Origin: Candidatus Korarchaeum cryptofilum OPF8
Lineage (GTDB): Archaea; Korarchaeota; Korarchaeia; Korarchaeales; Korarchaeaceae
Direction: 5' to 3'
Assembly: GCF_000019605.1 (NCBI RefSeq)
Contig: NC_010482.1
Coordinates: 1,110,001 to 1,142,000, forward strand
Length of the DNA stretch: 32,000 bases
Positions 14,644-21,895 of this stretch are shown in pieces. The notes below the pieces were generated by a model that was given only the letters and a program-made list of their open reading frames with translations, made no database searches and was not told where the DNA came from. The translations under genes and the position numbers were made by a program. Each line of letters opens with the position of its first letter. Within the stretch, counting starts at the first letter, position 1.

Positions 14644-15780
14644 ATGGCCCTCATGCCAACTGAGAAGTTCTATGTTTTAACCGAAGATGTGCCGAGAGAA
14701 CTACTGAAGCTTGGAGGAGACGGTATAAGAAAGTGTTACCAATGCGGCACTTGCACTGCAATCTGCCCAAACTCCGAAATCCAAACAGTGAGAGTGAGAA
14801 GATTAATAAAGAAGATTCAGCTGGGAGCAAAAGATGGAGTTCTAGGGGATCCCACACCATGGACCTGCTACTTCTGCGGTGATTGCAATGCTACATGCCC
14901 GAAGGATGCTACTCCAGGGTATATCATGGATTCCGCTAGAAAATATCAAATAATTAATTATAGCATCCTTAAGTTGGGTAAACTTTTCTATAATAAGCTC
15001 TCTATGGCATTAGCTTTCATTGTAATGACGGCTATCGGATTGTTAGGGATAATGGTATGGCCGGGTAGCTTGAGCGAGCTCGATCTAGGGAGGGCAGATA
15101 TATATAGCTTCATGGGCTCCGAGCTAATACATGAGATAGGCCTCTGGCTGTTAGCCTACGTAATTTTAGTAACATTGGCCAATATATTCAATATGTACAG
15201 ATATATGAGAAAGGCATATCAAGGAAAAAATACTAATGCATCTCTCTGGATCAAGGAGCTATTCTATACAATAAAGGAGGCTCTGTTCCAATCAAGATTG
15301 AGATGCCAAAAGGGAACAAGCTATAGGTATTTGTCCCATTTATCGATTTTCTGGGGGTTCATTTTAACCTTTGCCGCTACAGGAACTCACTTCATATGGC
15401 TTATGTTATATCCTGGAACGTCTGAGCCCTCCTACATCACTTACGCTGCTAGGATTTTAGGGATAATTGGAGGAATCCTCCTCATATACGGAAGCGTCTA
15501 TTACGTCATTCACAGGCTGAAGAAAGACGACGTCTATGCGGAAAGGACTTATCTTCCAGACTGGTGGTTCCTCTCGTTGATCACGGTGATCGCGATCACT
15601 GGCTTCTTAACGACTTCTGGTGTATATTTGAATGCCCCTATACTAACTTACGCCTCCTATGGTGTTCATCTCATGGCAGTATTCTATCTAATAGTCTCAG
15701 CGCCATTTTCGAAGTTCGCTCATCTGATATATAGGCCACTTGCCCTCTGGTTCGCGAAGGTATGGGAGGGAGAAATATGA
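14644..15780 (+). CDS. Fusion protein: HdrC-like 2x[4Fe-4S] ferredoxin domain plus a NarI/HdrE/DsrM-like polytopic membrane (putative cytochrome b) domain
   Basis: CYQCGTCTAICP and CYFCGDCNATCP are followed by about 6 hydrophobic helices carrying His residues (IHEIG, YLSHLS, GTHF, VIHR, GVHLM, SKFAHLIYRP). The start is placed at ATG 14644 (GGTGGGGG at 14628-14635), with 14653 also possible. The listed N-terminal 53 aa (from 14485) are translated AT-rich spacer. Confidence 0.75.
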   Translation: MALMPTEKFYVLTEDVPRELLKLGGDGIRKCYQCGTCTAICPNSEIQTVRVRRLIKKIQLGAKDGVLGDPTPWTCYFCGDCNATCPKDATPGYIMDSARKYQIINYSILKLGKLFYNKLSMALAFIVMTAIGLLGIMVWPGSLSELDLGRADIYSFMGSELIHEIGLWLLAYVILVTLANIFNMYRYMRKAYQGKNTNASLWIKELFYTIKEALFQSRLRCQKGTSYRYLSHLSIFWGFILTFAATGTHFIWLMLYPGTSEPSYITYAARILGIIGGILLIYGSVYYVIHRLKKDDVYAERTYLPDWWFLSLITVIAITGFLTTSGVYLNAPILTYASYGVHLMAVFYLIVSAPFSKFAHLIYRPLALWFAKVWEGEI

Positions 15781-17057
15781 AACCCGTAGCAGTTATTGGT
15801 GGTGGTATAGCGGGTATTCAGGCGGCTCTAGATCTAGCTAACCAGGGTATAAAAGTCTACCTAATTGAGAGAACTCCTTCAATAGGAGGGAGAATGGCTC
15901 AGCTGGATAAGACGTTCCCCACACTTGACTGCAGCATGTGCATCCTGACGCCGAGGATGGTGGAAGTTGCGAGAAATAAGAATATAGAGCTCCTGACTTA
16001 CTGCGATCTTATTGATCTAAAGGGAAGCGTTGGGAACTTCAAATTGAAAGTTAGAAAGAAACCTAGGTACGTAGATGTGGATAAGTGTACCGGTTGCATG
16101 GTCTGCTCCAAGTACTGCCCATCCAAAGTTCCTGATGAGTATAATGAGGGGATGAGTGAAAGGAAGGCTATTTATATTCCATTTCCTCAATCAGTTCCTC
16201 TAAAAGCCACGATAGATGCAGAACACTGCCTTTGGTTCCAGAAGGGGATATGCAGGAACTGCGAGAAGTTCTGCCCAGCTAAGGCCATAAATTATGATCA
16301 GAAACCTGAAGATATTGAGCTTGATGTCGCTGCTGTTATATTCGCTACCGGATATGAACTGATAATGGATGCAGAGTTTCTCAGAGAGCAGTATGGATAT
16401 AGTAGGTATGCGAACGTTTACACGAACTTGGAGTATGAGAGGATCGTCTCAGCGACAGGACCGACTGGAGGAGAGATCTTGAGGAGGTCTGACAAAGCTC
16501 ATCCGAAGAGAATAGCTTTCATTCAATGTGTTTGCTCAAGAGACGCTAGAATCAACCCGAATTGTTCTTCAATATGCTGCATGGCATCCGTTAAGGAGGC
16601 CATATTGACCAAGGAGCATATGCACGATGTTGATGTGACAGTCTTCTACATGGACGTCAGGGCCTTCGGAAAGGGTTACCAGGAATTCTATGATAGAGCA
16701 AAGCAGGAGTTCGGTATAAGATTCGTGAGAAGTAAGCCCGCTAAAATAGTAGAGGATCCCAGTACAAAGAATCTCATAGTTTACTATGAGGATACTCAAA
16801 GTAGTAAGTTCGTTAAGGAGGAATTCGATATGGTAGTCCTAGCGGTAGGGGTGAGACCTGTGAAACCCGATTCATTCATCCCGATGAGTGAGGATTCATT
16901 CGCTCAGCTCAAGGATCCAATTATGGAGCCGGTTAGCTCCCCGATCCCCGGTATCTTCGTGGTAGGGATGTTAAGCGGCCCCAAGGATATACCCGACTCA
17001 GTCGTTCAAGCGAGCGCTGCCGCGATGAAGGCATCTCTAATAGCTGTGAGCCATTAG
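15777..17057 (+). CDS. hdrA: HdrA-like flavoprotein, short form (no N-terminal Cys domain, no C-terminal ferredoxin domain)
   Basis: VIGGGIAGIQAALDLA FAD fold, the FPTLDCSMCILTPRM motif, an inserted ferredoxin (CTGCMVCSKYCP and CRNCEKFCPAKAI) and FIQCVCSRD...NCSSICCMAS. The ATG at 15777 overlaps the upstream TGA (ATGA). Confidence 0.85.
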   Translation: MKPVAVIGGGIAGIQAALDLANQGIKVYLIERTPSIGGRMAQLDKTFPTLDCSMCILTPRMVEVARNKNIELLTYCDLIDLKGSVGNFKLKVRKKPRYVDVDKCTGCMVCSKYCPSKVPDEYNEGMSERKAIYIPFPQSVPLKATIDAEHCLWFQKGICRNCEKFCPAKAINYDQKPEDIELDVAAVIFATGYELIMDAEFLREQYGYSRYANVYTNLEYERIVSATGPTGGEILRRSDKAHPKRIAFIQCVCSRDARINPNCSSICCMASVKEAILTKEHMHDVDVTVFYMDVRAFGKGYQEFYDRAKQEFGIRFVRSKPAKIVEDPSTKNLIVYYEDTQSSKFVKEEFDMVVLAVGVRPVKPDSFIPMSEDSFAQLKDPIMEPVSSPIPGIFVVGMLSGPKDIPDSVVQASAAAMKASLIAVSH

Positions 17058-17062
17058 GGGGG

Positions 17063-20429: not shown

Positions 20430-20434
20430 TACTG

Positions 20435-21895
20435 ATGAAGGAGGTCATAATAGATCCAATAACGAGGTTGGAAGGGCATGGAAAGATAACGATAAAGTTG
20501 GATGAGAATGGAAACGTCAAAAGAGCTCTACTTCAAATTCCAGAGCTAAGAGGATTCGAGAAGTTTCTAGTAGGCAGAACTGTTGAAGATGCTCCTCAGA
20601 TAACTTCTAGGATATGCGGTGTATGCCCATGGGCCCATCATATGGCCGCTACGAAGGCCCTAGATGATTTATTCAAAGTAGATCCTCCGCTAACAGCTAA
20701 GCTGATCAGGGAGTTCGTCTACAATGTATTTATGCTCGAGGATCATTCTCTGCACTTCTACGTATTAGGAGGACCCGATTTCTTGGTAGGACCGAAGGCT
20801 CCGAAGGAGGAGAGGAACCTCGTCGGCATAATTAGGAAGCTGGGCGCCGATATAGTCAAGAACATTATAGTGACCAGAAAGAAGCTCAGGTATTTGGAGC
20901 AGCTTATAGGAGGGAAGATAACGCACCCTGTCTTGGGACTGCCAGGAGGGGTCGCCAAACCCCTCTCAGATGAGGACTGGAAGTTATGCTATGAGACAAC
21001 TAAGGAGGGTATAGAATTCGCTAAATTCGCGTACAGGGCCCTTAAGGATCTGGTCCTCTCGAACGATGAGTATGTAGAGCTCATGAGATCCGATATCTAT
21101 ACACATAGGACTTATTACATGGGGCTAGTTGATCAAGGGAACAATGTTAATTTCTATGACGGGAAGATAAGAGTCGTAGATCCTGAAGGGAAAGAATTTG
21201 CTAAATTTGGTGCGAGAGAGTACTTAGATCACATAGCTGAAGACGTGGAACCTTGGAGCTACGTCAGGTTCACCTATTTGAGGAGGGTCGGCTGGAAGGG
21301 GTTCATCGATGGGAGAGAGAGCGGTATATACAGCGTTGCCCCACTGGCTAGGCTGAATGCCTCGGATGGGATGGCAACGCCGATGGCCAATGAGCTCTAT
21401 AAGGAGTTCTACCAAGCAATGGGAGGAAAGCCCGTCCATAATACCTTAGCTTTCCACTGGGCTAGGGTAGTCGAGATGGTCTATGCTGCTGAGAGAATGA
21501 TGGAGCTTATTGAGAATCCTGAGATAAAGAGGAAAGAAGTCAGAAACATCCCAAAGGAGAAACCGGATGTTGGGATAGGCGTCGTCGAAGCGCCCAGGGG
21601 GACCCTTATACATCACTACGAGACCGATGAGAAGGGTATAATAAAGAAAGCTAATCTAATCGTCGCGACACAAAACAATTCGGCAAGGATGGTTTTATCC
21701 GTAGAGAAAGCAGCAAAATCCCTCATAAAGAATGGGAAGGTAGATGATGGAATATTGAATATGGTCGAGATGGCGTTCAGAGCTTACGATCCATGCCATG
21801 CATGCGCAACACACTCTCTTCCGGGATCTATGCCCCTCATAGTCAGGATATACGACAGTGAGGACAACCTGATAAAAGAGATAAGAAGGGACTAA
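20435..21895 (+). CDS. mvhA: [NiFe]-hydrogenase large subunit, group 3c type (MvhA)
   Basis: ITRLEGHG, the L1 motif RICGVCPWAH and the C-terminal DPCHACATH, followed by a 26-aa extension. AGGAGG (20421-20426) lies 8 nt upstream of the ATG at 20435. Confidence 0.95.
   Translation: MKEVIIDPITRLEGHGKITIKLDENGNVKRALLQIPELRGFEKFLVGRTVEDAPQITSRICGVCPWAHHMAATKALDDLFKVDPPLTAKLIREFVYNVFMLEDHSLHFYVLGGPDFLVGPKAPKEERNLVGIIRKLGADIVKNIIVTRKKLRYLEQLIGGKITHPVLGLPGGVAKPLSDEDWKLCYETTKEGIEFAKFAYRALKDLVLSNDEYVELMRSDIYTHRTYYMGLVDQGNNVNFYDGKIRVVDPEGKEFAKFGAREYLDHIAEDVEPWSYVRFTYLRRVGWKGFIDGRESGIYSVAPLARLNASDGMATPMANELYKEFYQAMGGKPVHNTLAFHWARVVEMVYAAERMMELIENPEIKRKEVRNIPKEKPDVGIGVVEAPRGTLIHHYETDEKGIIKKANLIVATQNNSARMVLSVEKAAKSLIKNGKVDDGILNMVEMAFRAYDPCHACATHSLPGSMPLIVRIYDSEDNLIKEIRRD

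Follow-up and report, generated by a model that had tools for sequence, protein, structure and literature searches.

A Korarchaeum operon joining the Mvh hydrogenase to QmoC-type and HdrA-type subunits: a candidate membrane-attached, electron-bifurcating complex of the Mvh-Qmo kind

QmoC has been defined as the fusion of an HdrC-like domain with an HdrE-like cytochrome b, and a hydrogenase was proposed as a partner of Qmo in the same work (Ramos et al. 2012, PMC3333476). An association of Qmo with the MvhAGD module has since been described in methanogenic Archaeoglobi: Buessecker et al. reported this combination in Candidatus Methanoproducendum nevadense and speculated on electron flow among H2, ferredoxin and menaquinone (bioRxiv 10.1101/2022.12.01.518715), and Lynes et al. 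named the cluster of Candidatus Methanoglobus hypatiae Mvh-Qmo-Hdr, hypothesised that it bifurcates electrons from H2 to menaquinone and ferredoxin (bioRxiv 10.1101/2023.09.08.556235 / PMC10945360), and found it to be highly expressed, at 995-2,431 reads per kilobase per million mapped reads (RPKM; PMC10945360). In our literature searches these were the only two papers linking Qmo to Mvh; acidobacterial, D. autotrophicum, Thermodesulfovibrio and Antarctic-lake papers mention both without linking them, and the literature on Korarchaeia reports HdrABC/MvhD, and MvhA in a few lineages, with QmoC unmentioned. Here we analyse a cluster of six co-directional genes spanning positions 14644-21895 (+ strand) of a 32,000-nucleotide stretch of Candidatus Korarchaeum cryptofilum OPF8 (contig NC_010482.1), hereafter the window. 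An earlier sequence-only reading had not recognised this subunit combination, which is nevertheless the MvhAGD plus Qmo set already published for the Archaeoglobi, together with the same hypothesis of H2 oxidation coupled to menaquinone and ferredoxin reduction. The window locus is a Korarchaeota-like example of this known, biochemically uncharacterised Mvh-Qmo kind, and not a new kind of system. What is new here is the breadth of its distribution, the placement of a C-terminal histidine pair of QmoC on the haem ligands of NarI, and a conserved, complementary asymmetry of the two HdrA paralogues. With a probability that we put at roughly 55%, the operon encodes a membrane-attached, cytoplasm-facing six-subunit enzyme of the QmoABC type, in which a separate MvhD recruits MvhGA and electrons from H2 are bifurcated to quinone and ferredoxin.

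The table of open reading frames (ORFs) and their translations yielded the following genes:

14644-15780, + strand: qmoC-type gene for an Fe-S/membrane fusion protein, with an N-terminal HdrC-like 2x[4Fe-4S] domain and a six-helix NarI/CitB-type (presumed dihaem b) domain
15777-17057, + strand: short HdrA paralogue, QmoA-like, 426 aa, with a flavin adenine dinucleotide (FAD)/thioredoxin-reductase core and an inserted ferredoxin domain, and without the N-terminal or C-terminal domain
17063-19039, + strand: long HdrA paralogue, QmoB-like, 658 aa, with all four HdrA domains, MvhD unfused, and without the C194/C197 pair
19045-19470, + strand: mvhD, [2Fe-2S] adaptor subunit, 141 aa (Pfam FlpD, E = 5.4e-54)
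19470-20429, + strand: mvhG, [NiFe]-hydrogenase small subunit (NCBIfam VhuG, E = 5.4e-58), without a twin-arginine translocation (Tat) signal
20435-21895, + strand: mvhA, [NiFe]-hydrogenase large subunit, group-3c-like (NCBIfam VhuA, E = 7.4e-116), with a C-terminal DPCHACATH cleavage motif

Direct reading of the junctions bore out the earlier statement that these six genes are coupled. The qmoC-type gene stands first in the operon, and its ATGA overlap with the short hdrA (15777-15780) argues for its co-expression with the hdrA and mvh genes. The short hdrA ends in TAG and is separated by a 5-nt gap from the ATG of the long hdrA at 17063; the TGA of the latter (19037-19039) is followed by GGAGGTGAT and the mvhD ATG at 19045; mvhD and mvhG are joined by TGATG at 19468-19472; and the TGA of mvhG (20427-20429) precedes an mvhA ATG at 20435 that lies behind a second GGAGGTGAT. 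A T7 run follows the mvhA stop codon. Since the first product is of the QmoC type and the HdrA pair is QmoA-like and QmoB-like, the operon would correspond to a QmoABC-type complex with a separate MvhD and MvhGA.

The product of the first gene matched the QmoC model of NCBIfam (NF038018) with an E-value of 5.3e-64 (217 bits) across model positions 7-360 of 360. Weaker NCBIfam matches were to HdrC, TcuB/CitB and TmcC (TcuB with E = 1.6e-12 over residues 75-369), Pfam detected the dicluster domain Fer4_9, and QmoC homologues carry the precomputed Pfam label PF27541 CitB. The sequence-only reading had not recognised this fusion as QmoC; a distinct new architecture was rejected in favour of QmoC, which here neighbours an HdrA pair of the QmoA/QmoB type. 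The features that it had described are nonetheless present in the translation, namely two CxxCxxCxxxCP motifs (CYQCGTCTAICP and CYFCGDCNATCP) and a C-terminal SKFAHLIYRP, and the approximately six helices it had counted are six in the structural model. The cluster ligands C31/34/37/41 and C75/78/81/85 are invariant in 85 homologues, and the N-terminal ~100 residues are HdrC by both sequence and fold (PDB HdrC match, E = 1.9e-17; Foldseek HdrC match, E = 3e-4). A PDB sequence search with QmoC recovered HdrC and other dicluster ferredoxins only, with no solved QmoC and no match to NarI.

The AlphaFold2 model of QmoC (predicted local distance difference test score 85.3, predicted template modelling score 0.84) displays six long membrane helices (118-138, 159-191, 226-255, 263-293, 304-328 and 332-355) and a further C-terminal helix, and the histidines of the protein are found at positions 163, 232, 249, 290, 342 and 360. 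In Foldseek searches the membrane part recovered EtfD of M. smegmatis (9ojn) as the best match (probability 1.0, 255 columns, 17% identity), and NarI with probabilities of 0.92-0.94, yet with an E-value of about 1. Comparison of the QmoC profile with E. coli NarI using hhalign gave a probability of 83.9% and an E-value of 7.8e-6, and placed H342 on NarI H187 and H360 on NarI H205, both known haem-b ligands in the NarGHI structure; by this alignment the SKFAH motif of QmoC corresponds to PFSRLIH of NarI. Residues H232, H342, H360, R291, K357 and R364 are invariant across the 85 homologues, and H232 fits NarI H56 by topology. The expectation that the intramembrane histidines would fall on haem ligands held for H342 and H360 but not for NarI H66, the equivalent of which is T242 in the window protein and often Met in other homologues; in the window clade H163 or H249 is a candidate fourth ligand. 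The proposed fusion of an HdrC-like domain to a NarI-type membrane domain is upheld by the HdrC matches in the PDB, the Foldseek matches to HdrC, EtfD and NarI, and the hhalign result. These comparisons support a relationship between the membrane domain of QmoC and NarI, and a complete four-ligand haem set goes beyond the evidence. TcuB/CitB and EtfD, which are relatives of QmoC, pass flavoprotein electrons to quinone, and a quinone is a plausible high-potential acceptor for the present enzyme.

Two further columns of the QmoC alignment stand out. Residue 163, at the outer end of the second membrane helix, is His in 16 of the 18 Mvh-linked proteins and Glu or Asp in 45 of the 67 others, a contrast that could reflect a difference in haem or quinone sites between QmoC subtypes. 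The column of Y303 of the window protein is occupied by His in 53 of the 85 homologues.

With 46-52% identity to methanogen HdrA and 27-39% to canonical QmoA/B, the two HdrA paralogues lie nearer to the former. The short one aligns to residues 147-563 of M. thermolithotrophicus HdrA (5ODC_A; E = 3e-141, 51.6% identity) and the long one to residues 2-650 (E = 1.9e-183, 46.2% identity). The HdrA pairs of 13 Mvh-linked loci and of the window were aligned to 5ODC_A, the residue numbering of which is used below. Throughout this set the long subunit has the four cysteines of the N-terminal domain, the 386/399/403/404 cysteines and the C-terminal ferredoxin domain, and invariably lacks C194/C197; its inserted ferredoxin domain is lost or degenerate in the bacterial forms and kept in the window. 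Every short subunit retains the C194/C197 pair, which is C52/C55 in the window protein, along with the inserted ferredoxin domain and the 386/399/403/404 cysteines. This complementary pattern was seen wherever an Mvh-linked cluster has two HdrA genes, at loci L001, L003, L021, L022, L028, L034, L050, L063, L068, L077, L081 and L083 and in the window. The canonical QmoA/QmoB pairs of L004, L020, L025 and L040 divide their cysteines and domains in the same way, except that the window long subunit retains the inserted ferredoxin domain. The archaeal short subunits have an extra Cys at position 388 (CVC).

The significance of this division becomes apparent on comparison with the 2026 cryo-electron microscopy study of Mvh-Hdr (PMC13580544). 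There, each bifurcation unit draws on both protomers. The mobile arm of the first brings MvhD and the shuttle cluster HA3; the second provides FAD', the cysteine pair that is Cys202/205 in M. marburgensis, HA4' leading to HdrC/B, and HA5'/HA6' leading to ferredoxin. The Cys202/Cys205 pair is described as holding a ligand of unknown nature, located between FAD' and the cluster of MvhD (PMC13580544), and a role of HdrA Cys197 in ligating a [4Fe-4S] cluster of the neighbouring protomer was therefore not assumed. The window heterodimer keeps exactly the parts of one such unit, once. On the strength of this residue pattern, the two HdrA proteins would pair obligately as an A/B heterodimer, whose only bifurcating flavin would be that of the short subunit.

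The earlier assignment of two HdrA-like flavoproteins, MvhD, an MvhG devoid of a Tat signal and MvhA was confirmed by family and PDB matches. NCBIfam VhuA, VhuG and VhuD models matched the hydrogenase proteins, and the best solved structures were those of the same complex: MvhD (5ODC_D, E = 1.1e-48), with a conserved GCHxGDCHY motif; MvhG (5ODC_E, E = 9.3e-62); and MvhA (5ODC_F, E = 3.7e-114), with the large subunits of the F420-reducing (Frh) hydrogenase and of sulfhydrogenase scoring far lower. The N-terminus of MvhG is MAKAKIAFYWCASCGGC, without a twin-arginine signal. By these matches the hydrogenase is group-3c-like, an MvhA/G pair with an MvhD adaptor, and is predicted to be cytoplasmic.

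A six-frame scan detected no CCG or C..CC..CxxC motif in the real ORFs of the window, in agreement with the sequence-only reading of its translated frames; a lone CCG falls within an antisense frame of 69 aa near 5567. Neither HdrB (CCG domain) nor a free HdrC is encoded in the window, the HdrC-like domain being fused to the membrane domain. There is likewise no apr, sat or dsr gene in the window or in the flanks of L081 and L083.

In the scheme that we infer from these comparisons, which extends to complex formation, the direction of the reaction, the quinone acceptor and bifurcation itself, H2 would be oxidised at MvhA and its electrons would pass through the MvhG clusters to the [2Fe-2S] cluster of MvhD, a subunit borne by the 'mobile arm' at the N-terminus of the long HdrA paralogue. 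From there they would reach the flavin of the short paralogue, the sole keeper of the Cys194/197 pair, where bifurcation would occur. The high-potential electron would move through the adjoining [4Fe-4S] cluster and the two clusters of the HdrC-like domain of QmoC to b-type haems and a membrane quinone (Q), and the low-potential electron would leave through the inserted ferredoxin domain to ferredoxin (Fd), the net reaction being 2 H2 + Fd(ox) + Q -> Fd(red) + QH2 + 2 H+. The E0' values are about -414 mV for H2, about -74 mV for menaquinone, about -450 to -500 mV for ferredoxin and about -140 mV for the heterodisulfide; with these standard potentials, H2-driven reduction of quinone and ferredoxin should be as feasible as the heterodisulfide-dependent reaction.

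To assess the distribution of this gene set we surveyed QmoC loci with one genome per species, obtaining 80 loci that were then searched with the six window proteins. The closest homologues of QmoC, at 69-73% identity, come from Candidatus Korarchaeum metagenome-assembled genomes (MAGs) and Korarchaeota NZ13-K. In 14 of the 80 loci mvhDGA adjoins qmoC and hdrA genes: archaeal examples are from Thermoproteota (L001) and Bathyarchaeia (L002, L003), six are from Bacteroidales/Bacteroidota (L028, L032, L034, L039, L063, L068), and the remaining bacterial ones belong to Acidobacteriota (L021, L022), Aminicenantes (L077), Chrysiogenia (L050) and a Patescibacteria-labelled bin (L015). With the Korarchaeum MAGs included, the same set occurs at 17 further loci from several archaeal and bacterial phyla, a recurrence that argues against a chance assembly; this is the outcome of the gene-order survey that the sequence-only reading had proposed. 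The six-gene set together with hyp genes is conserved in the Korarchaeum/Thermoproteota MAGs L001, L081, L082 and L083 and in the Bathyarchaeota locus L003, and the entire arrangement, including the nik/hyp flanks, in L081 (GCA_038733065.1), L082 and L083; gene order is rearranged in 10 bacterial loci with the six-gene set. A rough neighbour-joining tree separates the Mvh-linked QmoC proteins into at least three groups, the window protein belonging to an archaeal one. More tentatively, the locus may represent a widespread class of hydrogenases, anchored in the membrane and bifurcating electrons of H2 to membrane quinone and ferredoxin, with members in Archaeoglobi, Bathyarchaeia, Korarchaeia and other Thermoproteota as well as in several bacterial phyla; such enzymes may be built on an obligate QmoA/QmoB-type heterodimer preserving one bifurcation unit, with the flavin in the short subunit and QmoC replacing HdrBC as the high-potential exit; the Korarchaeial acceptor might not be menaquinone.

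Three other loci from these searches merit mention. L085 (1-6684) encodes, in order, a DsrE-like protein, TusA, MvhD, a short HdrA, a long HdrA, a 105-aa ORF and QmoC, and L084 (1181-9209) brings together a CCG-domain HdrD-like protein, a 1029-aa double HdrA, MvhD and QmoC. The QmoC proteins of both are close relatives (35-39% identity), and from these associations with DsrE/TusA and with a CCG protein the QmoC/HdrA module seems to be reused with various partners. L015 (contig DATKZA010000108.1) contains a complete Mvh-Qmo cluster with a layout nearly identical to that of the Chrysiogenia locus L050; such a cluster is unexpected for the Patescibacteria group and may be a binning error.

Several observations weigh against the proposal of a quinone- and ferredoxin-reducing hydrogenase. 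The 217-bit score of QmoC misses the 300-bit equivalog cut-off of its model, so that an otherwise end-to-end match identifies a divergent QmoC-type protein and not an equivalog. Of the profile checks suggested earlier, that for Fer4 gave a match (Fer4_9), but Pfam PF02665 Nitrate_red_gam stayed below threshold (19.9 against 22.9 bits). Only three histidines of QmoC (232, 342 and 360) are invariant, leaving the fourth haem ligand not fixed. As both HdrA paralogues keep FAD-binding motifs, the position of the bifurcating flavin in the short subunit can only be inferred. The 32 kb hold no gene for quinone or haem biosynthesis and no quinol-oxidising enzyme, and quinone biosynthesis is reported to be incomplete in Ca. 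Korarchaeum cryptofilum. The claimed absence of HdrB, HdrC and HdrD stands for the operon and the window only; Korarchaeia in general are reported with partial HdrABC/MvhD and HdrD/GlcD genes elsewhere, and another partner may accordingly exist. Finally, our literature searches found no biochemical study of any Mvh-Qmo member.

These points bear on four rival explanations. The same complex might run in reverse in a fermentative Korarchaeon, confurcating electrons of reduced ferredoxin and quinol to evolve H2 and re-oxidise the membrane pool. The literature generally infers that Korarchaeia live by peptide fermentation and possess H2-evolving hydrogenases, group 3 hydrogenases are regarded as working in both directions, and the H2-evolving direction had also been allowed by the sequence-only reading; yet averaging the potentials of menaquinol (-74 mV) and ferredoxin (about -450 mV) gives about -260 mV, so that H2 evolution would need a very low H2 pressure, and H2 uptake is preferred in the two papers on Archaeoglobi. 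The surrounding nickel-uptake and hyp genes are uninformative on the direction, and on balance we regard the reversed reaction as unlikely. To the same degree improbable is a Qmo-like confurcation, in which H2 (through Mvh) and quinol (through QmoC) together reduce a soluble partner encoded elsewhere, be it APS-reductase-like (APS, adenosine 5'-phosphosulfate), of the DsrC/TusA type or of the HdrB/HdrD type, as proposed for QmoABC-AprAB. Ramos et al. 2012 (PMC3333476) considered a hydrogenase as the low-potential co-donor for Qmo-dependent APS reduction, with QmoA touching AprAB; Dsr genes occur in some Korarchaeota according to the literature, and the DsrE/TusA and CCG-domain neighbours of close QmoC relatives in L085 and L084 would fit such partners. 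Nevertheless, apr, dsr, tusA and CCG genes are absent both from the window and beside the cluster at the 17 other Mvh-linked loci, and the short subunit, with its intact inserted ferredoxin domain, keeps the ferredoxin exit of HdrA.

The operon could also encode a conventional soluble MvhADG-HdrABC (hetero)disulfide reductase with hdrBC elsewhere, QmoC being merely adjacent or an alternative module. The greater similarity of both paralogues to methanogen HdrA than to canonical QmoA/B, and the HdrABC parts reported elsewhere in Korarchaeia, would suit this arrangement, which we hold to be quite improbable: qmoC is the first gene of the operon and overlaps hdrA, its linkage to the hdrA pair and mvhDGA is held across archaeal and bacterial phyla, the HdrA pair shows the Qmo-type A/B asymmetry in place of a pattern compatible with a homodimer, and HdrC-like clusters are already supplied by QmoC. 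Very improbable, in our estimate, is a membrane domain that serves as a mere anchor or that uses a lipophilic carrier other than quinone, with the high-potential acceptor in Korarchaeia being other than menaquinone. The incomplete quinone pathway and the non-conserved fourth haem ligand speak for it; against it stand the three histidines and three basic residues (R291, K357, R364) that are invariant even when canonical quinone-interacting QmoC proteins are included, two of these histidines aligning with NarI haem ligands. We retain H2 oxidation with bifurcation to quinone and ferredoxin as the preferred reading of the operon.

With regard to the beginning of the operon, the qmoC start at 14641/14644 is better supported than that of the longest ORF at 14485, as homologues of 370-380 aa start at the position equivalent to 14644, and a GGTGGGGGA box lies upstream of the 14644 start. 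The alternative start at 14485 (the longest ORF, 431 aa; P0001 in the public gene calls, 429 aa) was rejected because its AT-rich extension of ~50 codons is missing from all homologues; the public call ~50 codons upstream (14485-14643) is probably a mis-called start. An AT-rich spacer of ~460 nt precedes the gene:

14181-14640, no strand: AT-rich intergenic spacer that separates the divergent genes hypF (-) and qmoC (+), contains several TATA-like stretches and is presumed to be the promoter region

The GC content across 14001-15000 is 0.36, and a spacer of about 460-560 nt is retained in L081 and L083. Scans for Rfam families and tRNAs were empty in the window and this spacer, where the only repeats are weak AT-rich inverted ones, so that nothing points to a riboswitch or another RNA element.

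The operon is flanked on both sides by genes for nickel handling and hydrogenase maturation, identified from their translations and, where stated, from Pfam labels:

7835-8245, + strand: nikR (NikR_C label on the syntenic gene of L081)
8228-10636, - strand: CbiM/N/Q/O-type energy-coupling factor (ECF) nickel/cobalt transporter (ABC_tran, PDGLE and CbiM labels on the syntenic genes of L081)
10745-11884, - strand: hypD (HypD label on the syntenic gene of L081 and L083)
11868-14180, - strand: hypF, divergent from qmoC (HypF label on the syntenic gene of L081 and L083)
21916-22374, + strand: HycI-type endopeptidase (Pfam HycI)
22417-22851, + strand: hypA
22858-23619, + strand: Mrp/ParA-type ATPase
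23616-23837, + strand: hypC
23846-24880, + strand: hypE

The order of the downstream maturation genes is repeated, with Pfam labels, in L081 and L083. Because nikR and the CbiMNQO genes adjoin hypD and hypF, and the whole is kept in L081 and L082, we consider nickel sensing, uptake, maturation and structural genes to form one island. Beyond the hyp genes lie a Cys-rich protein with weak matches to the FdhE central domain and zinc ribbons (24926-25714, +; syntenic in L083) and a TatA-like protein (25921-26247, +); as the Mvh small subunit has no Tat signal, these FdhE-like and TatA-like proteins may serve another exported redox enzyme. At the other end of the window, the ORF at 1215-2744 (+) combines a 2Fe-2S ferredoxin domain with the middle and C-terminal ASKHA domains of RACo; it resembles this activator, which acts reductively on corrinoid proteins, and so hints that the organism may carry out corrinoid-dependent methyl transfer or chemistry of the CODH/ACS (carbon monoxide dehydrogenase/acetyl-CoA synthase) type.

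If the proposed mechanism is true, the quinone pool would join the heterodisulfide and DsrC-type disulfides as a third kind of high-potential outlet in HdrA-based bifurcation, and electrons of H2 would be fed straight into the membrane with reduced ferredoxin made alongside. The complex would then offer a natural model for the debated mechanism of QmoABC, where the puzzle lies in the coupling of electrons at the quinol level to a low-potential partner, with the 'missing third partner' encoded in the operon itself. It would also suggest H2-based lithotrophy rather than pure fermentation in Korarchaeia and other uncultured Thermoproteota. The conserved subunit asymmetry provides a specific, testable structural prediction for an idea that is itself already published. 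The Mvh-Qmo enzyme class deserves biochemistry, and the window locus alone leaves the picture unchanged.

Among the known systems, TcuB/CitB and mycobacterial EtfD share with the window QmoC an Fe-S dicluster joined to a NarI-like membrane domain; they differ in their partners (TcuA and ETF, the electron-transfer flavoprotein, respectively), in the CCG domains additionally present in EtfD, and in their low sequence similarity to QmoC. MvhAGD-HdrABC (5ODC; PMC13580544) supplies the best solved-structure matches for MvhA, MvhG, MvhD and HdrA (E = 1e-48 to 1e-183), and the window proteins keep all cluster ligands of one of its bifurcation units. In contrast to that complex, the window operon is devoid of HdrB, free HdrC and the MvhB polyferredoxin, has an asymmetric heterodimer in place of the HdrA homodimer, and fuses the HdrC-like domain to a membrane cytochrome. 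QmoABC of sulfate reducers and Chlorobi (Pires et al. 2003; PMC3333476) resembles the window in the architecture of QmoC, in the short/long HdrA-like pair and in its complementary domain and Cys pattern. However, the window has MvhD as a separate gene, where QmoABC has an MvhD-like domain fused C-terminally to QmoB; its long subunit has no further domain after the C-terminal ferredoxin domain, with 658 aa against 718-757 aa for canonical QmoB ORFs. The window operon also has an attached MvhGA hydrogenase, an intact inserted ferredoxin domain in the long subunit, no aprBA or sat nearby, the gene order C-A-B, and a QmoC below the NCBIfam equivalog cut-off. Neukirchen et al. 2023 (PMC10504309) described a 'type II' Qmo closer to HdrA in organisms without Dsr/Apr, and the window is similar in having flavoproteins nearer to HdrA than to bacterial QmoAB and a cluster without Dsr/Apr. 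The Archaeoglobi Mvh-Qmo-Hdr clusters, compared here by their published description, are known from genomes and transcriptomes, as against genomes alone for the window cluster, which differs in its Korarchaeota-like lineage and in the location of the operon inside a nik/hyp maturation island. Like the window they have MvhA/G/D, two HdrA homologues (one assigned as QmoB by DiSCo) and a cytochrome-b HdrC-QmoC fusion, and they share with it the absence of an apr/sat context and the same proposed function.

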